DNA of 64,000 nt from Escherichia phage Murica: the sequence record NC_041871.1. One strand, 5' to 3'. Under the pieces are notes generated by a model. That model was given only the letters and a program-made list of their open reading frames with translations, did no database searches and had not been told where the DNA came from. This document shows positions 2,224-38,202 of the stretch, piece after piece; positions within the stretch are counted from its first letter, which is position 1, and each line of letters begins with the position of its first letter. The position numbers and the translations under genes are program-made.

Positions 2224-5200
2224 TTACTTCAGTTTCTCTTGCAACCCAGTAACAACCTCTGTCAATTTTTTAACCTGCTCCTCAAGGGCGGTTATTTTAT
2301 CGTCCTGTTCCCTGCAAACCTGGACAAGCAAGCCTGTTACAGCTGCGTAGTCAACGTTATAGAACCTTTCTTCTGTTATCAAAGGAGTTCCATCTTGATC
2401 AGGATTTGGGATTTCCTTCCTTTTCACGAAAGACCCTACTGCCTCTGGCAATGCTTCCATGACCTCTTGAGCAATTACCCCCGCGTGAGGCATACCATTC
2501 TCTTTTAAAGTGTAGGTATAGCCCTTCATCTTACGGATAGCTTCCAGCGCGTTAGGAATAACCTCTATATTGTCCTTCAGGTCTCTATCAGAGCTCTGGC
2601 TCACAGTGGTGCACTCTACTACACCGTTGACAGCAAAATATCTTGACTTAGCCTCGTCTGACCTAGTGCCACAGTGGAATACCCAGCTAGCAGATGCAGC
2701 GTTGTCGTTTACCTGAAACTCAAGCACGTTCTTCCTGTCTGCGTTACCCCAATAGAACATTCTACCTGTATTGGTAGGTAAGTTATCGGCGTTGCTAGAA
2801 AGACTATTAGCACCGACATGAATTTCCAGTTGATTACTGGTTTCACCAAAAGTGTAATTAGGTCTTAACTGAATGCCTTTACCAGCATCGTGTCTCCATT
2901 CTTCCCAAGTAAAGACATCGCCAACGTAGTTACCAGCACGAGTATATCTGTCACCAAAATAGGTGATATATTCCTGCACACAACCTTGAGGTCTGTTAGC
3001 TGTGTTTTTGTAAACAAGCAGTGTACCAGCGTACGGAGCAGGGTAGTGGCGATCTATTACAAGTGCGTCAGCGTTTGAACCTTGGTGATAGAAACCTTCA
3101 CGGCTACCATCGTAGGCATTAAGGTCTTCTGTCCCCAGACCTTGACCACGGTGCTGAATAACTTTGTTCCACGCCCTGTGGTTACCACCCTCAATAGATC
3201 TGGTGTATAACTGATCAAGGCGACCAGCCATTTGGAAAGCATAGTTTCCAGAAAACGCCACAGACAGTCCACCAACAACCATCGAACCTTCCGGTCCGTT
3301 GACATTGCCAGCCATTATCTTGGAGGGGTTTGTATTACCAAACTGATTGTTCCAGTCAGCACCTGTCTGGCAAACATAGCCTCCAGGAGGGAAAAATGTG
3401 CCGTCTTTGTTGAAATTGTAGAACTTATGAGCTGTACCTACAACATCGCGAACGATAACTTGACCAGCTTCCGGAGTAGATCTGAACTCTGCCTGGCCTT
3501 GCAGTCTTGCACCATTACCACATTTAGAGGTAAAGGTGTTGTTGATCAGATCCTCTGTTCCTTCCGATGCAGCTTGGAACCCTGCGTTAGAGAACAGTGC
3601 TTTTCTAGTGGTCTGACTACCAGGACAAATGTAGTCAATACCGTCTGCCCAAAGCTCGACTTTAGGCATGTTCATTTTGCTCATCACTGCATAGCGTTCA
3701 GGAGTCCCCAGGTAGTGCCACATAGTTCCACCACCAGTGTAGAAACCTGATGTTCCTTTGAACTCAACCAGAGGTCTGGTGTTTGTTACATCATCACCTT
3801 TGATTGCAAGACTCAAATCTGCAGATTCCAGAGGAGCACAGAACTTGACACCATCTTGGTTACCTGTCACGTTGCCTACCTGCCAATCAGCCTCCCTGGT
3901 TGACACTTCTATTACAGTAGCGCCAGCATATACCGTAACAGGGAATGCACGTGCCTCTACATAGAATGCAACATACTCCTGCTTACCTCTGGTTGGAGAT
4001 ACACATCCGAGGATTGCTCTCTCGTTTTGGTAGAAATTAATAACCCCTTGGAAAGAATCACCTCTGTCTGTCCAGCCACCAGTTCTGTAGTGACACTGTA
4101 GTGTAGCACAGTTCATTGGGTCGCCGCCAGAAGAAGATCTGGTGACAATGGTTAAATCTGTCCCGATAGTTGCTGCAAAGTTGGGGTCAGTTCTGACGAT
4201 AATAGGATAATACTTACCGTCCTGCATAGCTGCAGTTCTAGGCAGGTTTACATATGGTCTAGCACCTGCTGCCAGAGGGATTCTGAATTGTGCTTGAGCA
4301 TCCCCTACAGTCCTGGCACTGGTACCACCACAAGCTATCGGTAGTGGTTCCCATTTGGCTTTCCGGTTGTTATAAACACCCCACTCAAGCGTTCCTTCAC
4401 CTTGCTCGTCCATACCGCCATCCCAAATGACCATCTTGGCGGCTTTCTTAGATCCCCAGAAACCTCTTTCTGCTCCTGAACTGCGGATCCATTCTCCAAG
4501 TCCCCAGTTTGTCAGCTGACCAGTAAGATCCCCAACCTGCATATATTTAGGGCAGTCTAATACGCCGTCTTCGCGGAAACCTAAATATTTATGAGTTTCA
4601 GATCCTTTTGCACCTTTGTGCAGGTGGATTGTCAGCCAAGCCTTATTGTCGTTTCTTACCTCAGAGTAGATCCTATATCCATGCTCAAGAACACCATCGG
4701 TGTTATATTTATCTCCATGGAGAATACCTGAGGCCGATTTAACATCTCCAGAGTATTGAGCTAAGTAAAGGTGCCCAAAGGCTGGCGAGTTGTTTTTACC
4801 AAGGCCAATATGAGATCTGAAGGTATCATCGTTACGAGGTCTGACCATCGGCTGCCATGCAGTCCACTGATTTGTGTTGGCCTGATAGGTTCTCAAATAC
4901 CAAACATCTACGTTAGAGAATGGATAGTATTCCTGACGACAACCTGTACCTCCGTTAGCATTGTTCTGCCAAACAATCAAGTGACCAGCACCAGAACCTG
5001 CAGGGTAACCATTTGCCTCGGTTGCATAAGCAGTCATCGGCTGGTAGTATACACCATCCTGATTACCAGTCAAGTTATTGATATTGAAATTTGACTCAAG
5101 AGCTGCACGTTGCTTATAGAAAGCCCCTAAGTTAATGCGTGCACCTGCGGCATCTCTGGCCCCCGTACCGCCTTGCTCTATAGCAAGAGGCTGCCACGAG

Positions 5201-6036
5201 GCTGTTTGTTGGTTCCACATGCCCCAACGGCCTGTTGCGTCAAGCTGCAAGTACCCTGCCGTGTTTAAATCATCTCCAGCACGGATAACTGTTCTTGTTG
5301 GGTTGTTTGCCTCCAGGCGTTTAAATTCATCACGAAGTGCTATTCTTTTTGTTGTTGCTACACCGTTGGTTACTGCGATGGTATACATGGCTCCGGATGT
5401 AGCGCCACGGAAAATACCATCAACAGTTGTAGTATCACGACGAGATACCACACCGTTCAGAAATTTTTCACCAGCTGCTACAGAAGGGTAGTTGGTGGTT
5501 CTTCCCTCTTCAATAACTGCAGGACCCACAAAGTTATCAAGGTGAATAACATCACCTACAGTGTGCACCGTACCAAAATCTACACGCTGTGCAAGTGCTT
5601 TAGCATCGTTAGCTGTCTGAACAGTAACATCCATTACATCCTGGACAGACTGCCCTTCGGCTGTCATGATCATAGATGCGCCAATGGTAGATTCCAGCTC
5701 CTCCCTTAGGGACGGGTCAGTATATACCATCCATGCAGCGTCAGTAATCCCACCATCGGAGTACGGTGAAGATAGTGCAGGAACAGTGTGTGGAAATTCG
5801 CCTTTCCAACGCAGGTAGAGATCTTCCTCTTCGAAATAGGCAAAATCCATTGGGCCGTTTAACTTACCACCTTCCTTAAAGGAGATTACATGAGAAACAG
5901 TCCCATCCACATGGACAACATCGCCAATTTTTACACGACGGGTCAGGTCTGGTTGTTGAACAACCAGGTAATCATCCTCTGTCACTGCGGTAGTGGCAGG
6001 AAGAGATTCAATTCTGACAACTTTAATATCAGCCAT
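2224..6036 (-). CDS. long tail fibre protein with C-terminal intramolecular chaperone (peptidase S74-like) domain
   Basis: 1270 aa; N-terminal motif shared with the 8671..9339 protein; C-terminus carries an SDRDLKDNIE...GYTY motif typical of autoproteolytic fibre chaperone domains, followed by a coiled coil. Confidence 0.75.
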   Translation of the reverse strand: MADIKVVRIESLPATTAVTEDDYLVVQQPDLTRRVKIGDVVHVDGTVSHVISFKEGGKLNGPMDFAYFEEEDLYLRWKGEFPHTVPALSSPYSDGGITDAAWMVYTDPSLREELESTIGASMIMTAEGQSVQDVMDVTVQTANDAKALAQRVDFGTVHTVGDVIHLDNFVGPAVIEEGRTTNYPSVAAGEKFLNGVVSRRDTTTVDGIFRGATSGAMYTIAVTNGVATTKRIALRDEFKRLEANNPTRTVIRAGDDLNTAGYLQLDATGRWGMWNQQTASWQPLAIEQGGTGARDAAGARINLGAFYKQRAALESNFNINNLTGNQDGVYYQPMTAYATEANGYPAGSGAGHLIVWQNNANGGTGCRQEYYPFSNVDVWYLRTYQANTNQWTAWQPMVRPRNDDTFRSHIGLGKNNSPAFGHLYLAQYSGDVKSASGILHGDKYNTDGVLEHGYRIYSEVRNDNKAWLTIHLHKGAKGSETHKYLGFREDGVLDCPKYMQVGDLTGQLTNWGLGEWIRSSGAERGFWGSKKAAKMVIWDGGMDEQGEGTLEWGVYNNRKAKWEPLPIACGGTSARTVGDAQAQFRIPLAAGARPYVNLPRTAAMQDGKYYPIIVRTDPNFAATIGTDLTIVTRSSSGGDPMNCATLQCHYRTGGWTDRGDSFQGVINFYQNERAILGCVSPTRGKQEYVAFYVEARAFPVTVYAGATVIEVSTREADWQVGNVTGNQDGVKFCAPLESADLSLAIKGDDVTNTRPLVEFKGTSGFYTGGGTMWHYLGTPERYAVMSKMNMPKVELWADGIDYICPGSQTTRKALFSNAGFQAASEGTEDLINNTFTSKCGNGARLQGQAEFRSTPEAGQVIVRDVVGTAHKFYNFNKDGTFFPPGGYVCQTGADWNNQFGNTNPSKIMAGNVNGPEGSMVVGGLSVAFSGNYAFQMAGRLDQLYTRSIEGGNHRAWNKVIQHRGQGLGTEDLNAYDGSREGFYHQGSNADALVIDRHYPAPYAGTLLVYKNTANRPQGCVQEYITYFGDRYTRAGNYVGDVFTWEEWRHDAGKGIQLRPNYTFGETSNQLEIHVGANSLSSNADNLPTNTGRMFYWGNADRKNVLEFQVNDNAASASWVFHCGTRSDEAKSRYFAVNGVVECTTVSQSSDRDLKDNIEVIPNALEAIRKMKGYTYTLKENGMPHAGVIAQEVMEALPEAVGSFVKRKEIPNPDQDGTPLITEERFYNVDYAAVTGLLVQVCREQDDKITALEEQVKKLTEVVTGLQEKLK

Positions 6037-6071
6037 TCTTTCTCCTGAAAGGGGGCAAACAGCCCCCTATG

Positions 6072-8669
6072 TTAAAGGTACAATCCACGGTATTGAGCAT
6101 AAAGGCCCAGACCGCGAAGGATTTCGCCAGAGTGATAGCCCACCGGATCAGAAACTGCCCAGCAGCCGTTTAAAACATTATCCCCATTGATGAAGTGGTG
6201 CTTTTGCAGTAGCTTCATACAGGCTTCTACAACAATGTCTATTTGAGGTATTGTCTCTGAATACCCGCACAGACCTAGCCAGCAGCAACCTGCAAGCCAT
6301 TCACCTACCACCCACATCCTGTCCCCTCTGTCTTGATAAGAATATCCCCCAGAGGTGTTAAAGTCTGTAGGCAGATTTCCTGAATGAGATGACTGGAATC
6401 TGTTGAGGAACCATGCCCATTTCTGGCAGAACAGGAATAATCTTTCATCAACAGGTTCTTTATGTTTCTTGAGCTCATAGATTGTGCGGCACGCAGCAAC
6501 AAAAGATCTTGACTGGAGCTTAGAGTTATCTACCATCTCCCACCAACCAGTCAGCCCTTCATTACCTCTCTGCCATACATAACGCGAGGCAACTGGACCC
6601 TCTGTCTTAAATGTATTATTATACCAGACTTGAGCGTCATACAGAAAGCCTATTGTATTTGACAATCTATGGCGATCTATGTTTTCTGCACCCATGCAGT
6701 ATACTGCTGGGTATTGCATGCCAGGGTAGGGCCAATTTGGCTTTTCCTCTAAGAGATAGTTTTCCTTATCTATCACCTTTCCGGCAGGGAACACACCTGG
6801 TGTGTGCCTGTATGCACCTTGCTTGTAGTTTCTGACATAGCAATCACCAACCTTAGCGGTTGATTCTGTCTTGCTTGCCATCCATACGCTAAACCATATT
6901 AGATAAGCATCCCTATCTGCAATATAGAACTGCGGCAGCGTGTTTACGCAGTACAGATCAAACAAGCCATTACCTATCTGCCTGTCGCTTAGGCTGAAAT
7001 CTACAGAGGTGAGCCCCTTAGGATTAGCAAAGAAAGGTTTAATCTCTTCTTCGGTGTGATGAGGTTGTGTCGGATCTAGTTTGAAATCTCCTAGAGTAAG
7101 AGTTTCTGTTATCCATTGTCCATTAGTGGCATATAGATCAGCATACCATAACCACCTATCTTTGTCAAGAAATTTGACCCTTACCATCTCATCATCTGAT
7201 CGATAAGTTACTGAGTTTAAAGAAATCTCTCTACCAAAATTGAAAGTTACTTTACCTCTTGCTATATTACAACGGGTGAAGTTGTCAGAGTGGTTGTAAA
7301 TGTCGGTATCATACTGCATACTAACACTAGCGCCACCGCTTACGACAATGTTTTCCTCTTTAGGTAAGAGATACGGATTACCGTCTTTACCAACTACCTC
7401 TACGAAATCAGTAACCTTGGCAACTATTTCTGTTACCTCTGCCCCTCCAAAAGGAACCCCTATCCTGTACTGTTTTTTGTTATTGTTGCCATCATTAAGG
7501 ATGAAATGTGGCTGGAACAGAACCCCTTCTCCTCCGAAATTCATAACAATTTCAGCATCTCTGCCTATTTTGTATGTAGTCCCTTTTTGAATTATTTCGC
7601 AAGGCTGGCGTGCGTTCATTCTAAAATTGATATACCCGTCACTGTCCCTGCTCATGGCAGGAACTGTTCCTGCAACAAGGCAAGTACCATCTGTAAACGG
7701 TGCCTTAATCAACGTGGTCTTCCTAAACAGTTTGTCGTAGGCGTTTATATCACTGAAATTAAGCAATTTGTTGTAAGACTGTTTAAACGCGGTGTAATAC
7801 TTTTCCTCACCTGTCAAGGTGTAGAGTTGATAACAAGCGTCACACCACATTTCTTCCCCGTCCAACTCTGGGGCCTGATTATCTGCAACCACGTTTATAG
7901 GATTTACAATTACAGGGGATCCTGCAGGTATCACCGATCCGCCCTGCTCTTGAGGTAATCTTACACAATAGGTCACCTTGTGGCTGCCTGTAACACCCTT
8001 ATCTTGTAATTGGATTGTGCCGAACTCTACAGACGTATGACCACTGTCGGCTATGCTACCGTTAGCCCAATAGCGGTTACCATCCCATGCTATGTACCAC
8101 TCAACCCACCAACTTAATCCGGATGTTGTCCAATCTGGGTTAGCATCTGTGCCACCGTAAACATCAGAGTCTACAGTGTTTCTTCCTAACACACCGTTAT
8201 ACGCTTGGAATGCCTTGTCAAGGTATTCCCCCCATGTCGGAGATCCAGCTGGGATTTTTCCTCTACCGTTGGTAAAAGACACCACCACATCTTTAAACCC
8301 ACCATGTGATGGAACCCCATCTGTGGATAGAGGGTAGTGGGACAATCTTTGCATTTTACTTTCTACTGCATATGTACCCAGAAGATGGCTATTGTAAGCT
8401 TCCCAAGCATCTTTTGCCCTATCCAGATAGAAATCGCTTTTCGATGCCCTGTATGCTTCAATGTATCCCAGAATCAACACAGCTTGGGACTCATGCATTG
8501 CCCAATCATTATTTATCTTATTACCTGCCCACCCTGCAGCTATAAGACCATCAGGGTTTACTAGCTTATTTTGTGTAGAGGTGTTGGTAATACCTGTGTT
8601 GTTATCGAGGCACTTCCTGTGCCCCTCAATCATCTGAAATACGTTATCAATGTTATGTTGAATACGCAT
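6072..8669 (-). CDS. tail-associated protein, putative polysaccharide-degrading enzyme (depolymerase-like)
   Basis: 865-aa ORF immediately after the short anchor-domain protein; Trp/Tyr/Asp-rich sequence suggestive of a carbohydrate-active fold; no anchor domain of its own. Confidence 0.45.
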   Translation of the reverse strand: MRIQHNIDNVFQMIEGHRKCLDNNTGITNTSTQNKLVNPDGLIAAGWAGNKINNDWAMHESQAVLILGYIEAYRASKSDFYLDRAKDAWEAYNSHLLGTYAVESKMQRLSHYPLSTDGVPSHGGFKDVVVSFTNGRGKIPAGSPTWGEYLDKAFQAYNGVLGRNTVDSDVYGGTDANPDWTTSGLSWWVEWYIAWDGNRYWANGSIADSGHTSVEFGTIQLQDKGVTGSHKVTYCVRLPQEQGGSVIPAGSPVIVNPINVVADNQAPELDGEEMWCDACYQLYTLTGEEKYYTAFKQSYNKLLNFSDINAYDKLFRKTTLIKAPFTDGTCLVAGTVPAMSRDSDGYINFRMNARQPCEIIQKGTTYKIGRDAEIVMNFGGEGVLFQPHFILNDGNNNKKQYRIGVPFGGAEVTEIVAKVTDFVEVVGKDGNPYLLPKEENIVVSGGASVSMQYDTDIYNHSDNFTRCNIARGKVTFNFGREISLNSVTYRSDDEMVRVKFLDKDRWLWYADLYATNGQWITETLTLGDFKLDPTQPHHTEEEIKPFFANPKGLTSVDFSLSDRQIGNGLFDLYCVNTLPQFYIADRDAYLIWFSVWMASKTESTAKVGDCYVRNYKQGAYRHTPGVFPAGKVIDKENYLLEEKPNWPYPGMQYPAVYCMGAENIDRHRLSNTIGFLYDAQVWYNNTFKTEGPVASRYVWQRGNEGLTGWWEMVDNSKLQSRSFVAACRTIYELKKHKEPVDERLFLFCQKWAWFLNRFQSSHSGNLPTDFNTSGGYSYQDRGDRMWVVGEWLAGCCWLGLCGYSETIPQIDIVVEACMKLLQKHHFINGDNVLNGCWAVSDPVGYHSGEILRGLGLYAQYRGLYL

Positions 8670-28713: not shown

Positions 28714-28790
28714 TGGTCTCCACGGAGTGATTCGAACACTCGACCTCCTGATCCCAAATCAGGCGCTCTACCAAGCTGAGCTACGCGGAG
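28714..28790 (-). tRNA. tRNA-Pro (anticodon UGG)
   Basis: cloverleaf folded by hand: 7-bp acceptor, T-loop TTCGAAT, anticodon loop TTTGGGA, encoded CCA. Confidence 0.8.
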
Positions 28791-28801
28791 TATTTATTAT
28801 T

Positions 28802-28876
28802 TGGTGGCCCTGGGTGGAATTGAACCACCGTCTGGCGATTATGAGTCGCTTGCTTGAACCTTCCAGCTACAGGGCC
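28802..28876 (-). tRNA. tRNA-Met (anticodon CAU; could be lysidine-modified Ile)
   Basis: acceptor GGCCCTG/CAGGGCC, anticodon loop CTCATAA, T-loop TTCAATT, encoded CCA. Confidence 0.75.
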
Positions 28877-28877
28877 T

Positions 28878-28953
28878 TGGTGCTGATGGCAGGACTTGAA
28901 CCTACAACCTATTGATTACAAATCAATTGCACTACCGATTGTGCTACATCAGC
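28878..28953 (-). tRNA. tRNA-Thr (anticodon UGU)
   Basis: acceptor GCTGATG/CATCAGC, anticodon stem ATTGA/TCAAT with loop TTTGTAA, T-loop TTCAAGT, CCA. Confidence 0.8.
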
Positions 28954-28960
28954 AAAAAGG

Positions 28961-29057
28961 TGCTAGGTGATGGAATCGAACCACCTATGTATTCAACGAC
29001 TACCTCGTCTATTTTCAGGATTAAAAATCCTCGCCCTTGCCAAAGGGCTTACCTAGC
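28961..29057 (-). tRNA. atypical 97-nt tRNA-like element (anticodon unresolved, possibly UUU; very long variable region)
   Basis: perfect 7-bp acceptor pairing GCTAGGT/ACCTAGC, canonical T-arm GGTGG-TTCGATT-CCATC and D-arm, but 65 nt between; no encoded CCA. Confidence 0.45.
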
Positions 29058-29155
29058 TCAGTATGTTGACCATGTTGCTAGTCGGCGATGACGACTGTAA
29101 CATTTGATAATCCGGTTCTGCTTCCGGCTTTCGCTTAATTACAAGGTCAACAATG

Positions 29156-29246
29156 TGGCGGAGAGTAATGGAATCGAACCATCATCGAGTCATCCTCAAC
29201 GGGACGGTTTTCAAGACCGCTTGAGCACCATTGCTCCCTACCCTCC
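29156..29246 (-). tRNA. tRNA-Ser (anticodon UGA), type II
   Basis: 91 nt, acceptor GGAGGGT/ACTCTCC, anticodon loop CTTGAAA, long variable arm, T-loop TTCGATT, CCA. Confidence 0.8.
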
Positions 29247-29360
29247 TTTATAAATTATACTGATAATGACACTGATTTTCGAGCAGTTAGTGACTAGTAT
29301 AAACGACGATAAATATCAATGCCATTATCTGTATTATTTATGCATCTAAAAATATAAATT

Positions 29361-29447
29361 TGGTGGGGAGTGGTGGAGTCGAACCACCCGAGTCGCAATG
29401 ACAATAGATTTACAGTCTACACCGCTACCTCTACGGGATAACTCCCC
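29361..29447 (-). tRNA. tRNA-Tyr (anticodon GUA), type II
   Basis: 87 nt, acceptor GGGGAGT/ACTCCCC, anticodon loop CTGTAAA, long variable arm, T-loop TTCGACT, CCA. Confidence 0.8.
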
Positions 29448-29451
29448 AATT

Positions 29452-29526
29452 TGGCACCCCGTACTGGACTCGAACCAGTGTCAACGGCTTAGAAGGCCGC
29501 TGCTTTATCCACTAAGCTAACAGGGC
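29452..29526 (-). tRNA. tRNA-Arg (anticodon UCU)
   Basis: 75 nt, anticodon loop CTTCTAA, T-arm ACTGG-TTCGAGT-CCAGT, acceptor with two G-U pairs, CCA. Confidence 0.75.
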
Positions 29527-32041: not shown

Positions 32042-32392
32042 CTAACCAGTTGTTGACATTCGAATAACTTCTTCTGGTGGCAAAACTTTGGAAAATGTGC
32101 ATCTTTTACCTCTCCCTTGTGTGGATGTTTCAACCACTCCTGCACATTCTAAAGTTTTAACGCACGCTGCTGCTTTTGTTTTCTTTATCCCAACATCTGC
32201 TGCAATTTTCCTTGTGCTTGGTGTGAAGCGGGAATTTCCTCCAAGCTTATACCAGTTGTGCAGGTAGCAGTATACAATCTTGTCATACAAGTCAAGAACA
32301 ACAACCTCCCCAGTTGTGTCATTCAAAACTTTTGACATAGATAGTATTTCAAGGGGGACTTTAAGATATAGCAGCTTATCCCCATCTTTCAT
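32042..32392 (-). CDS. putative helix-turn-helix DNA-binding protein
   Basis: 116 aa with AGGAGAT RBS; HTH-like segment STRKIAADVGIKKTKAAACVKTLECAGVV; lies next to the iteron array. Confidence 0.4.
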   Translation of the reverse strand: MKDGDKLLYLKVPLEILSMSKVLNDTTGEVVVLDLYDKIVYCYLHNWYKLGGNSRFTPSTRKIAADVGIKKTKAAACVKTLECAGVVETSTQGRGKRCTFSKVLPPEEVIRMSTTG

Positions 32393-32439: not shown

Positions 32440-32994
32440 TTACTCCCTGCTGTCAATATCAAAACTCATTGCAATACGGTATGCCTCTTCTAATGGTAAG
32501 AGTCTCCCCCACACATCCCAACCGACATCAAGCTGCCTGCCAAACAACTGTTGTGTGGTTCCGTGAGCATGACCGAACAGTTGGACTGATCCGTGAGGCT
32601 TTCTGTTCCACTTTGCAAACTGGTAATGGCTCATACAGATCAAATTCTTGTTGTGGCGAAGCTCGTAATAATCTACAACCTCATGACCGAACTCTTTCAT
32701 AATTCTGACAGTCGTCCTTGTGTCATGGTTGCCACGAACAAGAATAATATGTCCGTTCAACATATTTAGAATATCTGGAAGTAAGTTGTTGATATTCTTA
32801 TCATTAGTGCACGCAATATCTCCCAGGTGGAACACAGTGTCTGCAGGTGACACAACGGAGTTCCACTCGGTGATGATTCCCGCATTCATACTGTCAAGAT
32901 TGTGATCATATTGAGATCTGTGTTTTTGACATGAATCAAACTCCATGACCCGCTGGTGGAGAAAGTGCGTATCGCTTGTTACAAAGTATTTCAT
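32440..32994 (-). CDS. calcineurin-like metallophosphoesterase (putative polynucleotide 2',3'-phosphatase)
   Basis: motifs SDTHF, GDIACT and GNHD; ORF track 32440..33099 trimmed to ATG at 32992-32994 with GAGGAA RBS. Confidence 0.65.
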   Translation of the reverse strand: MKYFVTSDTHFLHQRVMEFDSCQKHRSQYDHNLDSMNAGIITEWNSVVSPADTVFHLGDIACTNDKNINNLLPDILNMLNGHIILVRGNHDTRTTVRIMKEFGHEVVDYYELRHNKNLICMSHYQFAKWNRKPHGSVQLFGHAHGTTQQLFGRQLDVGWDVWGRLLPLEEAYRIAMSFDIDSRE

Positions 32995-33001
32995 ACATTC
33001 C

Positions 33002-33412
33002 TCATTTAAGTTTAATGCAGTTTTTAAGCTGGCGTTCCATACGATCCACAACCTTGTCTGGAACATCATGAATGCTTTTATTACCGTGGCGGTTTTCAAC
33101 CACGATTACGGTATAACTATACCCATGACTGATTGCCATGTCAACATATTCCTGCACATGTTTTTCTTTTGTAAACGTATTACTTACCACGATACGGTCG
33201 TATCCCATACGCATCATATCTTCTACGTTATCTTTGCACCATTTTGCTGCGAGTGTTACTTTACTTGCATCCCAGTTGTAATTGCCGTCATCGTCATACC
33301 AAAACATGTCATTCTCAAAATGTGGATACAGACCTTCTAAAGATAGCGCATTTGCCAGTGTTGATTTGCCAGACCCTGGCAGACCACGCACGATATATAG
33401 CATTTTAGACAT
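33002..33412 (-). CDS. P-loop polynucleotide 5'-kinase-like protein
   Basis: Walker A GLPGSGKST at the N-terminus; ORF track 33002..33469 trimmed to ATG at 33410-33412 with GGAGGATTGCT RBS. Confidence 0.6.
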   Translation of the reverse strand: MSKMLYIVRGLPGSGKSTLANALSLEGLYPHFENDMFWYDDDGNYNWDASKVTLAAKWCKDNVEDMMRMGYDRIVVSNTFTKEKHVQEYVDMAISHGYSYTVIVVENRHGNKSIHDVPDKVVDRMERQLKNCIKLK

Positions 33413-33440
33413 AGCAATCCTCCGTTTTAATTTTAATGAT

Positions 33441-33469
33441 AGTATACCTAACTGTTTTGTTAATTTCAA
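33441..33469 (-). promoter_or_regulatory. minus-strand early promoter (TTGAAA-17-TATACT) for the kinase/phosphatase operon
   Basis: -10 TATACT is the complement of 33441-33446, -35 TTGAAA of 33464-33469; RBS and ATG follow. Confidence 0.5.
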
Positions 33470-33472
33470 GTG

Positions 33473-33501
33473 TTGACACTAGGTTATTTGTGTGGCAGGA
33501 T
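33473..33501 (+). promoter_or_regulatory. plus-strand early promoter (TTGACA-17-TGTGG-CAGGAT, extended -10-like)
   Basis: consensus -35 TTGACA at 33473-33478; TG-containing element before a weak -10; back-to-back with the minus promoter. Confidence 0.4.
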
Positions 33502-33530
33502 AGACTGACAAAATGACAAATGAGGAACGT

Positions 33531-34448
33531 ATGATGAAGTATTTTAATGCAGATGACCTAGTAGACAAAGGTCTTGTAACCAGTCGGTATTATCCAGATC
33601 TTGGATTAAAGATCTATAAATATGCCAGAAAAGTATTCTACAACGATCTGTGGCATTTGTCTCCGCGTTTACTGGAGTGCCGAGGTATTGTTGTTGGCAA
33701 TGAGGGGAATGTTGTGGCATGGCCTTTCACAAAAGTATTCAACTTAGGAGAAAACTCCACCAACCTACCGGACAGTAAACTTGTTACTGCGGTAGAGAAA
33801 AAGAACGGATTCCTCGGTGTGGTATCATCTCATAAAGGTGAACTATTGTTCTCAACAACCGGGTCTCTTGATTCCCCATATTGTAACCTCGCAAAAGAAA
33901 CCATCAGGGAGCAATGTGGTAATTTAGATCTTATCAAGAAGGTTATGGGCAATGAAAACATGACATTCATGTTTGAAATTTGCCACCCTTCAGATCCGCA
34001 TATTGTTCAGGAAGATCATGGCGCATATTTGATAGGTTGCAGATATAATGATTCTGGAATAATGCTACCAGAAGCAGCTTTAGATGGGATTGCCAAATAC
34101 CTTGGTGCAAAACGTCCTCACACTGTGCGTGAAATTCCGTTCAGCTATGCAAAAGAATTAGCTGCAGAAACAAGAGGTGAAGGGTATATGATTCGTAAGC
34201 CTTACTACCCTTATGATCTGCAGCTGAAGATCAAGTCTCCATACTATCTGGCACGGAAGGCAGTAATGAGGGGTAAAGCTTGGAAGATTTGGGATGATGA
34301 TATCTTTAAACGTGTTGACGAAGAGTTTTACGGTATGGTAAAATTTATTCGTAGCAACTATACAGAAGATGTGTGGAATTGCTTATTAGAGCAGGAGCGT
34401 CGTGAGATACTGGACTACTATTTCCACAACGAGGACTATATGCAATGA
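33531..34448 (+). CDS. RNA ligase, T4 RnlA (Rnl1)-like
   Basis: N-terminal pattern LLECRGIVV...WPFTKVFNLGEN recalled as matching T4 RNA ligase 1; KxNG nucleotidyl-transferase motif (EKKNGF); start chosen at ATGATG after GAGGAA (track start 33513). Confidence 0.65.
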   Translation: MMKYFNADDLVDKGLVTSRYYPDLGLKIYKYARKVFYNDLWHLSPRLLECRGIVVGNEGNVVAWPFTKVFNLGENSTNLPDSKLVTAVEKKNGFLGVVSSHKGELLFSTTGSLDSPYCNLAKETIREQCGNLDLIKKVMGNENMTFMFEICHPSDPHIVQEDHGAYLIGCRYNDSGIMLPEAALDGIAKYLGAKRPHTVREIPFSYAKELAAETRGEGYMIRKPYYPYDLQLKIKSPYYLARKAVMRGKAWKIWDDDIFKRVDEEFYGMVKFIRSNYTEDVWNCLLEQERREILDYYFHNEDYMQ

Positions 34449-34795
34449 AGAAGTGGATTGTGTGGCTGGATGATTTGAGAGATCCGTCAAATTATGGACT
34501 CCCAGACGCTATTTGGCTGAAGAATTCCTCAGAGTTTATGGATTTTATTAACGATAAGGGAAAGCTCTACAGACGCGTTTCTGAGTGGCATATGGACAAC
34601 GACCTAGGAGAAGTATTCGAAGGATACGATTGCCTATCCATGTTGGAGGAAAAATTTGTATTCGGTAAGCCTCCAGTGATTGACAACGTGAAGATTTTCG
34701 TACATACTTCTAATCCATCGGCAGCTCGTAAATTTATGCTTGCTGCTGACTCATTCAAGAAGTTTGGAATAGAGATTAAACAAAACATCTACTGA
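34445..34795 (+). CDS. hypothetical small protein (possible receiver/flavodoxin-like fold)
   Basis: 116 aa, coupled to the ligase stop; pattern WLDD...D-DLG...HTS loosely resembles a CheY-like receiver domain. Confidence 0.35.
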   Translation: MKKWIVWLDDLRDPSNYGLPDAIWLKNSSEFMDFINDKGKLYRRVSEWHMDNDLGEVFEGYDCLSMLEEKFVFGKPPVIDNVKIFVHTSNPSAARKFMLAADSFKKFGIEIKQNIY

Positions 34796-34803
34796 GGACA
34801 CTT

Positions 34804-35565
34804 ATGCGACGACTGATTATTATCTCCGGTGCTGGTTTGAGCGCTGAATCTGGTATTCCCACTTTCCGATCTGGTAGCACTGCAATGTGGGAGAATTTCA
34901 GCATCGATGAGGTGTGCAACATCCACACCTTTGCCAAGAACTACTATAAGGTGCATGACTTTTACAATGCACGTCGTGTAGCTCTGGGCAGTGTTGATCC
35001 TAACCTTGCACATCTTCGGATCGCTGAGTGGTATTCCCGCTGGTCTGGTCGTGTGATCAACCTTACCACCAATGTAGATGATTTGCTGGAGCGTGCTGGT
35101 GTAAAACATGAAGATATTTTACATGTCCACGGGTATTTGCCTGAAATCACCTACGAAGATGCTGAAGGTAACGATGTAATTAAAAATATCGGATACACGG
35201 AGGTAGATACAGGCAAGTATACCTGGGTTAAGCCTAATGTAGTGTTCTTCGGTGAGGTTGCTCCTAAGTATACAGACATGTATGACCTGTTGACATCTCT
35301 CACAAGCAATGATATGGTGATCCTGGTGGGTTGTTCTAACACAGTTATTAATTTTAACTGGGAATTGTTTCCTGCTACTTGTAAAGGCACAAAACTGCTG
35401 ATTGTAAACAAGTATGACTCGCAGAGTGCAGATGGAAGTGGCATTTCACGTAGCGACCTTTATCAATATGAGGATCGCGGGATCCCTGTATGGTTTAACG
35501 GTGCTGTTGACGCTTTCTCTGATAAAGCATTTATTGAAACTGTAGAAAACTTTATGGAACTTTAA
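34804..35565 (+). CDS. Sir2-family (sirtuin-like) NAD-dependent enzyme lacking a Zn-ribbon
   Basis: GAGLSAESGIPTFR NAD-binding motif, TTNVDDLLERAG and HVHG catalytic His motif; no CxxC pairs. Confidence 0.8.
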   Translation: MRRLIIISGAGLSAESGIPTFRSGSTAMWENFSIDEVCNIHTFAKNYYKVHDFYNARRVALGSVDPNLAHLRIAEWYSRWSGRVINLTTNVDDLLERAGVKHEDILHVHGYLPEITYEDAEGNDVIKNIGYTEVDTGKYTWVKPNVVFFGEVAPKYTDMYDLLTSLTSNDMVILVGCSNTVINFNWELFPATCKGTKLLIVNKYDSQSADGSGISRSDLYQYEDRGIPVWFNGAVDAFSDKAFIETVENFMEL

Positions 35566-35578
35566 AAGGAGACCTTTA

Positions 35579-36292
35579 ATGCTGAATACTAAACTGATCG
35601 ACAACCTGGAAAAACTGTCTCAGCCTGAAAACTACCTTTGGTCTGCCAACTGGGTGGAAAACTGGAACCGTGTGGCAGCTAAAGTGAAAAAATCATACAC
35701 ACCATTCGAATTACAGCTTAGCTTCATTGAGGAAGAGTTCAATGAGGTTTTGGAAGAGCTGGAGAAAGGTGATGGTGGAGATCACCTGTTAAAAGAGGCC
35801 TGCGATCTTCACGTTGTCACAAGTTATGCCGCCTATCTTGTTAATGACAATCACGAAAAGTGGTCAAACCTGTTTGATAATCCACGAGGTCTTAAGTTCA
35901 AGATCGGTGAGTTCTATGATACACTGATCGCTGCGAAAAACACATCCAAGCAAAGAGCGTCAGCTTACCGCTTAGCGGAGTTGTCAACAGCTTTGCTGTT
36001 CCAGCTTCGCGGCGATGTGTGTGGGATGATGCGGAAGGTTCTCAAATCTAATGACAGTAAGTTTGCACGGATCAACCATCTACGGCATTCACACGGTGCC
36101 AGTGCAGATATGCCTGCTGAACAACTCATCGAGTTGGAGATTAAAGATCTTGAGCGTCGTTTTGGTGGTCGCTACGAAGGTTTTGTTGCTAAGGAAGAGT
36201 TCTACAACGGTAATAAAGTTATCATATTCCTTGACAGTAAAGGTAAGATCATGAAGCCTTCGAGCTTCAAGGATGTAACAGAGTATATTTGA
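35579..36292 (+). CDS. putative MazG-like nucleotide pyrophosphohydrolase
   Basis: 237 aa; EEEFNEVLEELEK...D acidic helix pattern typical of all-alpha NTP pyrophosphatases; AAGGAG RBS. Confidence 0.4.
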   Translation: MLNTKLIDNLEKLSQPENYLWSANWVENWNRVAAKVKKSYTPFELQLSFIEEEFNEVLEELEKGDGGDHLLKEACDLHVVTSYAAYLVNDNHEKWSNLFDNPRGLKFKIGEFYDTLIAAKNTSKQRASAYRLAELSTALLFQLRGDVCGMMRKVLKSNDSKFARINHLRHSHGASADMPAEQLIELEIKDLERRFGGRYEGFVAKEEFYNGNKVIIFLDSKGKIMKPSSFKDVTEYI

Positions 36293-36663: not shown

Positions 36664-36919
36664 TCTTGCTAAACCTGTAGAAGCCCACCAGTTTGACGGA
36701 AGCTCTTCATCAGTATCTGATCTGCAACGGTGGATTGATACAGGTGTGTTTACATCGTCACCTGTTCGGACCAGAGATCTTCGTCGCATGTGTGAGCTTG
36801 TCGAGCCTTTTGGTAACCTTGTCTTGTACCAGGGAGATTGGCTAGTTGACTTTATGGGAGACTGGTTGGTAATGAGTAAAGAAGAGATGTTTAAAATTTT
36901 TAAGGAAGAGGCCGAGTAA
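36650..36919 (+). CDS. hypothetical protein
   Basis: 89-aa ORF with AAGGAGG RBS. Confidence 0.4.
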   Translation: MPLFNLAKPVEAHQFDGSSSSVSDLQRWIDTGVFTSSPVRTRDLRRMCELVEPFGNLVLYQGDWLVDFMGDWLVMSKEEMFKIFKEEAE

Positions 36920-38202
36920 TGCATCAAATCAAAACAACACTGTACGCACTGAACAAAGATGGCAGCTACCAACAGTGGAAAGTATTCACTGATGGCGAAA
37001 AGGTTATCGTAGAGTTTGGCAAGCTTGACGGTAAATTGCAGTACAAAGAGACGGTATGCACACCTAAGAACGTAGGTCGTGCCAATGAGACTACAGCTGA
37101 GCAACAGGCCGAGCTTGAGGCTATCAGCAAGTGGGAAAAACAAGTCCGTCTGGGGTATGTTGAAAACATGGAAGATTGCGAGCAGGGTGTTGACCTTTTA
37201 CCCATGCTGGTGCATGACTACCTGAAGCGTGGCAAGGCACTTAAATTACCTTGCTGGATCTTGCGTAAGTTAGATGGCCTTCGTCTGCTTGTTGTTTTCC
37301 AAAATGGTGAGCCTAAATTTATTTCCCGTGGTAATAAGTCCTACCCTATTCAAGGAAAGCTTTTAGAGCAACTTCGTTCTTTCCATTCTACCACTGGGAT
37401 TAAACAACTTGATGGGGAACTATACATTCATGGTCTTCCTTTGCAGAAAATAGTGTCTCTTGCTAAACGGTGGCGCACACAGGAAGAGATTCAGGCCGAG
37501 ATCGATAAAGACTATGAGGCAGATAAAAAACGCCGTCATGCCGCAATTAAGGCAGGCTTATCAACATACAAAAACTTCAACAAGGTAGATATTCCTGTCG
37601 ATGTTGAGCCTGTTCGTGATGATTTGCGTTACGGTGGGTACTGTAGCTACGATCTGGAGTATCACATTTTTGATATTCCTAGCGACAAGGTGTGGTGGGA
37701 TCCAGAAACAGAGTCTGGACGCTGCAAGGATCTTATGGATGCAGAGGATACCGTTACCACTCTGATGCTTGATCATATCAAGGTTGTTGACGCAGAGCTT
37801 GCGTACACAGTTGATCATTGCGAAGAATCTGTTGGTATATTCATGTCCGAAGGATATGAAGGTACTATCATGCGTAATTTCTGCGGTAAATACGAGTACG
37901 GTCAGCGAACATCTGAAGCATTGAAATGGAAAAAGTTCAACGACGCAGAGGTGAAAGTTATTGACGTTGAGAAAGATAAGAATGATGAAGGTGTTCTTAT
38001 CTGTGTTGACAAGGAAGGTGTTGTTGTTAAAATGAAGATGAAAGGCACGCACGAGGAGCGTAGCTATGACAGGATGCAGGAAATGATCGGCAAGTTTGTC
38101 ACCTTCAAATACCAAGCAAGGACAGAAGACAACAACTACCAATTCCCTGTCGGTATCTGCGTCCGAAATGTTAACCCAGACACTTGGGAGGTGCTTGAAT
38201 GA
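36919..38202 (+). CDS. ATP-dependent DNA ligase
   Basis: motif I KLDGLR, motif III DGELYI, motif IV EGTIM, motif V LKWKK in correct order. Confidence 0.7.
   Translation: MHQIKTTLYALNKDGSYQQWKVFTDGEKVIVEFGKLDGKLQYKETVCTPKNVGRANETTAEQQAELEAISKWEKQVRLGYVENMEDCEQGVDLLPMLVHDYLKRGKALKLPCWILRKLDGLRLLVVFQNGEPKFISRGNKSYPIQGKLLEQLRSFHSTTGIKQLDGELYIHGLPLQKIVSLAKRWRTQEEIQAEIDKDYEADKKRRHAAIKAGLSTYKNFNKVDIPVDVEPVRDDLRYGGYCSYDLEYHIFDIPSDKVWWDPETESGRCKDLMDAEDTVTTLMLDHIKVVDAELAYTVDHCEESVGIFMSEGYEGTIMRNFCGKYEYGQRTSEALKWKKFNDAEVKVIDVEKDKNDEGVLICVDKEGVVVKMKMKGTHEERSYDRMQEMIGKFVTFKYQARTEDNNYQFPVGICVRNVNPDTWEVLE

Follow-up and report, generated by a model that had tools for sequence, protein, structure and literature searches.

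In bacteriophage T4, the tRNA repair carried out by the polynucleotide kinase-phosphatase Pnkp (PseT) and the RNA ligase Rnl1 (RnlA) counters the anticodon nuclease PrrC. Bacterial Pnkp systems, represented by Clostridium thermocellum Pnkp/Hen1 and Capnocytophaga Pnkp1-Rnl-Hen1, bring together a P-loop kinase, a binuclear metallophosphoesterase (MPE) and an ATP-dependent RNA ligase. C. thermocellum Pnkp (CthPnkp) and lambda phosphatase, both of the MPE superfamily, heal 2',3'-cyclic phosphate ends (PMC2190708). In phages, calcineurin-like phosphatases are described as partners of polynucleotide kinases and ATP-grasp RNA ligases (Iyer et al., 2021, jumbo-phage paper), and a sirtuin-centred RNA-repair neighbourhood of "type 2", with Escherichia phage V5 and Proteus phage Mydo as prototypes, has been defined (Iyer, Burroughs, Anantharaman & Aravind, 2022, Viruses 14:1977, PMC9503650, section 3.7.3). 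This V5/Mydo-type set comprises a sirtuin, a T4-like ligase, cREC, a nucleotide kinase and MazG, to which a calcineurin-like phosphoesterase may be added (PMC9503650); cREC (cyclic-phosphate-processing receiver-like protein) is a predicted metal-independent 2',3'-cyclic phosphodiesterase (PMC7824862, PMC9503650). Iyer et al. proposed that the neighbourhood cleans 2',3'-cyclic phosphate RNA ends for ligation, and hypothesized that Sir2 removes the RNA 2'-phosphate with NAD+ in a KptA/Tpt1-like manner (PMC9503650). Here, we analyze such a locus in a 64,000-nucleotide stretch (the window) of Escherichia phage Murica (NC_041871.1), where a kinase, an MPE and an RNA ligase encoded at 32440-34448 form, with a probability that we put at roughly 70%, a phage RNA end-healing and sealing module built from separate proteins.

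The locus had been singled out in an earlier reading of the window's letters alone (the original prediction), which placed three open reading frames (ORFs) at positions that the ORF list confirms and assigned them to kinase, MPE and RnlA-like ligase families with which Pfam and PHROG profile searches agree. Its interpretation as an RNA end-healing and sealing set is the best-supported explanation, because the conserved motifs, the predicted folds and the strongly preserved linkage of the genes in distantly related phages all point that way. The extent that it gave the system holds for these three genes and is too narrow beyond them, as the cREC, Sir2-family and MazG-like genes of the same neighbourhood were overlooked. 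Taken as a whole, the interpretation is partly supported: the proposed function is probably correct; the account leaves out part of the module, places undue weight on the promoter arrangement and describes a system already known. The genes and the gap between the two transcription arms are as follows.

32440-32994, minus strand: MPE gene, 184 aa, N-terminus MKYFVTSDTHF (ORF list)
33002-33412, minus strand: kinase gene, 136 aa, N-terminus MSKMLYIVRGLPGSGKST (ORF list)
33413-33530, no strand: intergenic region between kinase and ligase, strand-switch point and site of the GC-skew sign change
33531-34448, plus strand: Rnl1-family ligase gene, 305 aa from 33531 or 311 aa from 33513
34445-34795, plus strand: cREC gene (PF20274 cREC_REC, 2e-14; phrog_1479, 3.9e-35)
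34804-35565, plus strand: Sir2-family gene (PF02146 SIR2, 6.9e-28; phrog_2162, 1.5e-108)
35579-36292, plus strand: gene for a MazG-like nucleotide pyrophosphohydrolase (phrog_671, 1.5e-21; without a Pfam match)

All six genes of the V5/Mydo-type neighbourhood are thus present within 32440-36292, and the gene content is identical to that described. Emphasis is what differs, as the published account is built around Sir2 and counts the MPE as an occasional member, whereas the kinase-MPE pair is the most conserved part in our survey (59 of 80 loci, see below). The module is therefore already known, having been described for V5-type phages and its kinase having been annotated in BASEL records. A literature search on the RNA ligase, kinase and phosphoesterase of rV5 and the Vequintavirinae found no experimental study of the module, with the exception of HIDEN-SEQ transposon data.

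The kinase matches AAA_33 (1e-10) and phrog_505, "polynucleotide kinase" (4.7e-10), and belongs to a very large set of stand-alone P-loop proteins of ~130 aa, in which the invariant positions include the Walker A motif (GLPGSGKST), D35, an SNT motif and an ENRHG motif. With the T4 pseT and rnlA genes used as hhalign targets, it aligned to the PseT kinase domain with a probability of 95.9% (E 5.5e-9) over T4 residues 1-141 only, K16/S17 falling on T4 K15/S16 and the invariant D35 on T4 D35. The general-base Asp of such kinases follows strand 2 and is D35 in T4 Pnk and D38 in CthPnk. The invariant E106-N-R108-H-G lies in the region equivalent to the lid, of which the arginine (R126 in T4) contacts the NTP phosphates; the hhalign register is uncertain there. 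An AlphaFold2 (AF2) model of the protein (predicted local distance difference test score, pLDDT, 84.6) superposed best on CthPnk, T4 Pnk and PSTK (TMq 0.75-0.78; 0.71-0.78 with Capnocytophaga Pnkp1), compared with a TMq of 0.46-0.60 for gluconate, shikimate and UMP-CMP kinases. A search of PDB sequences with the kinase sequence alone gave P-loop noise only. With a profile built from 34 sequences, the matches that spanned most of the kinase domain were Pnkp1, T4 Pnk, PSTK and CthPnk; the top two matches, both Mucorales kinases, aligned in two separated stretches, AvrRxo1 was the one other long match and a weak one (E 0.28), and small-molecule kinases matched at the P-loop only. Judged by profile and modelled fold, which are nearest those of polynucleotide and tRNA kinases, the protein is most likely a minimal P-loop 5'-OH polynucleotide kinase-like protein, and the same comparisons disfavour a nucleoside or nucleotide kinase unrelated to polynucleotide ends.

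The MPE scores above cutoff against both Metallophos_2 (1.1e-6) and Metallophos and matches phrog_547 (1.9e-51), and its five metal-ligand motifs (D8xH10, GD59, GNH90, H123 and GH142xH144) recur without variation in 37 homologues. Its closest solved relative, over the full length, is Aquifex aeolicus aq_1665 (1xm7; profile E 7.6e-29; Foldseek E 1.2e-8 and TM 0.64 with an AF2 model of pLDDT 93.8), followed by MJ0936, GpdQ, YfcE, PptH, Rv0805, a Pseudomonas MPE nuclease and ApaH. PDB profile matches at E <= 1 comprised aq_1665, GpdQ, YfcE, PptH, Rv0805, the MPE nuclease, ApaH and Vps29; the CthPnkp phosphatase domain and lambda phosphatase were recovered neither at that threshold nor among the Foldseek top 50. 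On sequence and model, the protein is a calcineurin-like binuclear metallophosphoesterase of an aq_1665-like family, and a role in healing 2',3'-cyclic-phosphate or 3'-phosphate ends is proposed for it. Because aq_1665 is nearest and the other two enzymes were not recovered, the resemblance to bacterial Pnkp holds at the superfamily level only. The original prediction had likened the phosphatase to that of bacterial Pnkp, which is borne out insofar as the protein has an MPE fold, and not where a specific kinship is meant.

The ligase matches PF09511 RNA_lig_T4_1 across the full profile (9.3e-15; 55.5 bits, cutoff 28.3) and phrog_562 (1.2e-65), and a seven-sequence profile of it aligned by hhalign to T4 RnlA with a probability of 97.6% (E 4.7e-12) over T4 residues 47-250 only. 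In the numbering of the 311-aa form, the alignment pairs K96 with T4 K99, R57 with R54, K74 with K75, F76 with F77, E155 with E159, E223 G224 with E227 G228, K239 with K240 and K241 with K242. In mutagenesis by the Shuman laboratory, K99, E159, E227/G228, K240/K242, R54, K75 and F77 of T4 Rnl1 reportedly proved essential. The aligned catalytic residues are invariant in the 7 homologues, and motifs I (KxxG), III, IV and V are present together with the Rnl1-specific upstream residues. Past motif V the ligase has only ~60 residues, the NCBIfam T4-RnlA equivalog reached 37.5 bits (cutoff 242) with profile positions 32-250 of 373 matched, and neither this profile nor hhalign found the T4-type C-terminal helical domain (T4 ~255-374). 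Since the alignment ends at motif V, we regard the protein as an Rnl1-type catalytic domain that lacks the C-terminal part of T4 Rnl1, a domain implicated in tRNA specificity. PDB searches with the single sequence or a small profile gave no ligase match. By its sequence, the ligase is a compact (~300 aa) Rnl1 subfamily member for which a sealing role is predicted; this subfamily comes mostly from phage-sized contigs.

The resemblance to the T4 system thus lies in the chemistry, as the same three activities are predicted (5' kinase, 3'-end phosphoesterase and Rnl1-type ligase), and in the kinase and ligase nucleotidyltransferase domains, which are detectably homologous to the T4 proteins. Unlike T4 Pnkp, the kinase is a stand-alone protein of 136 aa without a fused DxDxT (HAD) 3'-phosphatase; the contrast drawn in the original prediction with the fused T4 enzyme is upheld by the alignment to T4 residues 1-141 only and by Pfam and PHROG scans of the neighbouring genes, which found no HAD domain in the locus. 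The phosphoesterase likewise departs from T4 in its fold, that of a binuclear MPE, the ligase in the missing C-terminal domain, and the Vequintavirus arrangement in that the repair genes straddle a strand switch. With the bacterial Pnkp systems the locus shares the combination of P-loop kinase, binuclear MPE and ATP-dependent RNA ligase, and its kinase fold matches CthPnk and Pnkp1. It differs from them in that three polypeptides are encoded on two strands instead of one kinase-MPE-ligase chain, in that the MPE is of the aq_1665 family and not lambda-phosphatase-like, and in that the ligase is Rnl1-type. No methyltransferase was found among nine neighbouring genes scanned with Pfam and PHROG, a scan that included no search aimed at Hen1.

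The linkage of the genes is preserved well beyond the close relatives of Murica. The MPE, ligase and kinase genes sit together on a single strand, with few or no genes between them and in varying order, in PVP-SE1, Mydo, PHB05, Vibrio phage F88, PaP1 and an Acinetobacter phage:

PVP-SE1 and Mydo: MPE ... ligase-cREC-kinase-Sir2-DNA ligase, one strand
PHB05 (Stephanstirmvirinae) and Vibrio phage F88: MPE-ligase-kinase, contiguous
Acinetobacter phage: ligase-kinase-MPE
Pseudomonas phage PaP1: MPE ... ligase-kinase, then NAD-salvage genes

We further surveyed 80 uncultivated viral loci with a kinase homologue, phylogenetically non-independent and many of them truncated, by means of hidden Markov models (HMMs) and all-against-all clustering of the neighbouring ORFs. 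The neighbours of the kinase were counted as follows.

Same MPE family: 59 of 80 loci, always on the kinase strand, directly adjacent in 23 and in either order
Rnl1-type ligase: 24 of 80
PF09414 ligase with a PHA02142 OB domain: 22 of 80
Any RNA ligase: 44 of 80
cREC: 22 of 80
NUDIX: 21 of 80
HAD "Swiss-army-knife RNA repair" phosphatase: 8 of 80
Sir2: 7 of 80
MazG: 7 of 80
At least one RNA-repair partner: 70 of 80

Two non-orthologous ligase families therefore swap beside a constant kinase-MPE pair, an exchange that speaks for a functional tie to RNA sealing. Among 50,697 phage records, the kinase matched 619, the ligase 701 and the MPE 1249, and the genus counts of kinase and ligase were nearly identical. 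The domain set, which the original prediction had called unusual, is neither unusual nor new: some 600 sequenced phages carry it, and it was described with V5 as a prototype (PMC9503650).

Fusions were also looked for. No multi-activity fusion was found among the ligase homologues listed; a 422-aa ligase homologue (P0227) was rejected as a fusion, since it has an N-terminal extension only, and a kinase fusion in Vibrio phage Kuja was uninformative, as the fused region of ~210 aa has no Pfam match. A fusion is hinted at, and unconfirmed, in phrog_8238 (737 positions), the N-terminus of which matches the kinase and the C-terminus the ligase.

Two further families without a significant Pfam match recur in the surveyed loci, one of ~330 aa between kinase and MPE (15 of 80; among others L018, L032, L041 and L089:8387-9379) and one of ~415 aa just after the MPE (19 of 80; e.g., L067:9074-10321), and both may be further components of the module. 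In PaP1 (Pakpunavirus), ligase and kinase are followed directly by ribose-phosphate pyrophosphokinase and nicotinamide phosphoribosyltransferase genes for NAD+ salvage (PaP1 locus 3064-7244), an arrangement that ties the module to NAD+ supply also in the absence of Sir2.

From these features a pathway can be proposed. A metal-independent host ribonuclease would cut RNA, most plausibly in a tRNA anticodon loop, to leave a 2',3'-cyclic phosphate and a 5'-OH. The 136-aa P-loop kinase would phosphorylate the 5'-OH, the MPE, possibly after ring opening by cREC, would turn the cyclic or 3'-phosphate end into a 3'-OH, and the compact Rnl1-type ligase would join the ends with ATP. For cREC, such a part is consistent with the invariance of D9 D10, D51xD53 and H87xxN90 across 10 homologues. 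The Sir2-family and MazG-like proteins would be accessory, with uncertain roles in either 2'-phosphate removal or the clean-up of NAD/ADP-ribose (ADPr) by-products. We infer the enzymatic activities, RNA (tRNA) as the substrate, anticodon nucleases as the trigger and a function against host defence alike from motifs, models and gene linkage.

Genetic data bearing on this proposal come from the HIDEN-SEQ preprint (10.1101/2025.11.20.689424, supplementary file 9), which reports transposon sequencing of the Vequintavirus Bas54, where the genes follow the same order. According to the counts tabulated there, which depend on our interpretation of the supplementary column layout, insertions were tolerated on E. 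coli K-12 in Sir2, cREC, ligase, kinase and MPE (mean ~88-406), and the ligase orthologue had a mean count of ~192 over 60 sites, as compared with ~36 for T4 rnlA and ~6 for Bas37 rnlA (10.1101/2025.11.20.689424). Such tolerance fits an accessory, conditionally useful module and argues against an essential morphogenetic role of the kind known from T4 gp63. The latter role is in fact the least credible of the alternatives that we considered: that the ligase is chiefly a T4 gp63-like tail-fibre attachment factor, with the kinase and MPE as incidental neighbours, is very improbable. It is encouraged by a label found in many records, "RNA ligase and tail fiber protein attachment catalyst", which was inherited from T4 RnlA and thus derives from homology alone, and it is at odds both with the tolerance of insertions in the Bas54 ligase, where the tabulated T4 and Bas37 rnlA genes tolerate them poorly (10.1101/2025.11.20.689424), and with the linkage of the ligase to kinase and MPE, which is kept across families.

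Several observations weigh against RNA end healing and sealing. No enzymatic activity has been reported for the module proteins or close homologues, and the ligase is without the C-terminal domain of T4 Rnl1. The nearest solved relative of the MPE, aq_1665, has no assigned function and, being without a known substrate, says nothing on RNA-end activity; the more distant relatives are cyclic-nucleotide and glycerophospho-diesterases, ApaH and nucleases, not RNA 3'-phosphatases. No RNA ligase was found within reach of the kinase in 36 of the 80 loci, many of these being truncated, and in the rows examined of the preprint's comparison with uropathogenic isolates the Bas54 ligase, kinase and MPE were not significantly depleted (adjusted p 0.75-1.0; 10.1101/2025.11.20.689424). 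The co-occurrence of NUDIX, Sir2, MazG and NAD-salvage genes, finally, also fits a nucleotide- or NAD-centred role. Taken further, this last point becomes the proposal that the module acts mainly on small molecules, with the MPE, cREC, MazG, NUDIX and Sir2 proteins degrading or consuming NAD/ADP-ribose derivatives or cyclic (oligo)nucleotide immune signals, the P-loop protein being a nucleotide kinase and the ligase an unrelated neighbour. The 21 NUDIX-bearing loci, the presence of Sir2 and MazG, the PaP1 kinase that adjoins ribose-phosphate pyrophosphokinase and nicotinamide phosphoribosyltransferase, and the MPE profile matches to the cyclic-nucleotide phosphodiesterase Rv0805, GpdQ and ApaH would all accord with it, as would the wording of Iyer et al., who say only "nucleotide kinase" and place the cluster in an NAD-ADPr network (PMC9503650). 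We nonetheless consider it quite unlikely, because the kinase is nearest the polynucleotide and tRNA kinases in profile and fold while small-molecule kinases match at the P-loop only, and because ligases of two families lie directly next to kinase and MPE, in many cases with the stop codon of one gene overlapping the start of the next.

In a further alternative, the kinase and MPE would heal DNA ends for a nearby DNA ligase, or the ends of any nucleic acid, and so serve phage DNA replication or repair. DNA ends, too, are substrates of T4 and Clostridium Pnkp; an ATP-dependent DNA ligase is encoded at 36919-38202, 2.5 kb downstream, and in PVP-SE1 and Mydo a DNA ligase gene comes directly after Sir2. 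The MPE also shows weak similarity to PdeM, a ligase-associated DNA-damage endonuclease (NCBIfam E 2.5e-4, well short of the cutoff), and to a "Nuclease MPE" from Pseudomonas (profile E 0.007). The company that the kinase keeps in the 80 loci is nevertheless that of RNA ligases (44), cREC (22) and HAD_SAK (8), against 9 loci with the DNA-ligase cluster, and kinase and Rnl1-type ligase have nearly the same distribution across phage genera; service to DNA ends accordingly seems a slim prospect, on a par with a small-molecule function.

RNA end healing and sealing can also be given a more elaborate form, which we put forward only tentatively and consider unlikely as it stands. There would be two parallel branches for healing the 3' end, one through the MPE and one through cREC and Sir2, with kinase and MPE together acting as an autonomous "split Pnkp analogue". 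The MPE branch would result in 2'-OH/3'-OH ends, while in the other branch cREC would open the cyclic phosphate to a 2'-phosphate that the sirtuin would remove with NAD+, before or after ligation. We know of no sirtuin for which RNA 2'-phosphotransferase chemistry of the Tpt1/KptA type has been demonstrated. The split Pnkp analogue would be widespread in phages and would pair interchangeably with Rnl1-type or PF09414-type ligases.

The divergent layout of the Murica locus, which the original prediction had treated as a design feature organized around a shared promoter, is incidental and does not amount to a purpose-built regulatory arrangement. Long ORFs to the left of the intergenic region are on the minus strand in 23 of 24 cases and those to the right on the plus strand in 22 of 22, and GC skew changes sign at ~33.4 kb. 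As the ORF strands switch there, the region between kinase and ligase is the window's global strand switch. Only Vequintavirus has the kinase-MPE pair across a strand switch, the genes being co-directional in PVP-SE1, Mydo, PHB05 and PaP1, and a dedicated bidirectional promoter as the organizing principle was rejected on both grounds. As to the promoter itself, the minus-strand half of the claim is matched by a sigma-70-like TTGAAA-17-TATACT upstream of the kinase (33469..33441, promoter scan); the plus-strand half fares less well, with a perfect -35 (TTGACA, 33473-33478) and a weak -10 (CAGGAT after TG) below the scan threshold. The strongest sigma-70-like match of the region, TTGACA-17-TATAGT (11/12; 33144..33116, minus strand), falls within the kinase gene, ahead of the MPE, and corresponds to the annotated promoter P80 in rV5, so that the MPE may also be transcribed independently of the kinase. 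An Rfam scan of 27.5-38.5 kb found tRNAs only, and no known riboswitch or small RNA.

A helix-turn-helix (HTH) gene two genes away (32042-32392, minus strand) matches phrog_12838, "replication initiation protein" (5e-80), and its Bas54 orthologue had low transposon counts (~13.6; 10.1101/2025.11.20.689424). Together, the skew sign change, the strand switch and this gene suggest a replication origin or initiator region beside the repair module.

The genes on either side of the strand switch are tightly packed. The kinase ATG is preceded by GGAG 8 nt upstream, and 7 nt separate the kinase stop from the MPE start. On the plus strand, the ligase stop overlaps the cREC start by 4 nt, and gaps of 8 nt (Sir2) and 13 nt (MazG-like) follow, so that ligase, cREC, Sir2 and MazG-like genes form one tight run with the MazG-like gene last. 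The kinase and ligase starts are 100-121 bp apart, as the ligase has candidate starts at 33513, 33531 and 33534, of which 33531 or 33534 is favoured over 33513 by homologue alignment. Longer ORFs with TTG starts (33469, 33099) were rejected because homologue alignments give them no support.

The window belongs to a Vequintavirus, and its 32.0-36.3 kb segment shares 99.9% identity with Escherichia phage vB_EcoM-Pr121LW and 97% with rV5 (V5). At least 80% of this segment is covered by 116 phage records, including rV5 (ORF 80-82) and the BASEL Vequintavirus isolates, with the same gene calls. In these relatives the MPE is annotated as a putative phosphoesterase, the kinase as a conserved hypothetical protein, an ATPase or (in BASEL) a polynucleotide kinase, and the ligase as an RNA ligase (1 and tail attachment protein). 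About 23 records labelled "Campylobacter phage" (host C. jejuni) are at least 97% identical to E. coli rV5-like phages across the locus, which looks like contamination or mislabelling of the deposits.

Seven clustered tRNA genes (28714-29526, minus strand) share the transcription arm of the kinase and MPE genes and comprise Pro-TGG, Met/Ile-CAT, Thr-TGT, an odd Lys, Ser-TGA, Tyr-GTA and Arg-TCT. Lys, Tyr and Arg isoacceptors are targets of anticodon nucleases, and tRNA-Lys(UUU) is the classic target of PrrC and PARIS. The odd member, a 97-nt tRNA at 28961-29057 (minus strand) and 3.4 kb from the repair genes, scored 35.5 bits with the Rfam tRNA model and received no ARAGORN type; its anticodon loop, TTTTTAA, was read by eye as UUU and hence tRNA-Lys, as its BASEL homologue is also annotated, and its variable arm is unusually long (~25 nt). 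This atypical phage tRNA-Lys may be a second counter-measure, based on replacement.

Phage RNA repair is among the ways of countering host defences that cut tRNA, such as PrrC, RloC, PARIS, some retron effectors and Cas13. The module would represent a second widespread solution to this problem, found in about 600 sequenced phages and assembled from parts that differ from the T4 paradigm. If the reading is true, it would provide the first function for aq_1665-like phosphoesterases and would put the chemistries predicted for cREC and the sirtuin to the test. It would also help to predict which phages resist RNA-targeting defences, including the therapeutic Vequintavirinae and Pakpunavirus.

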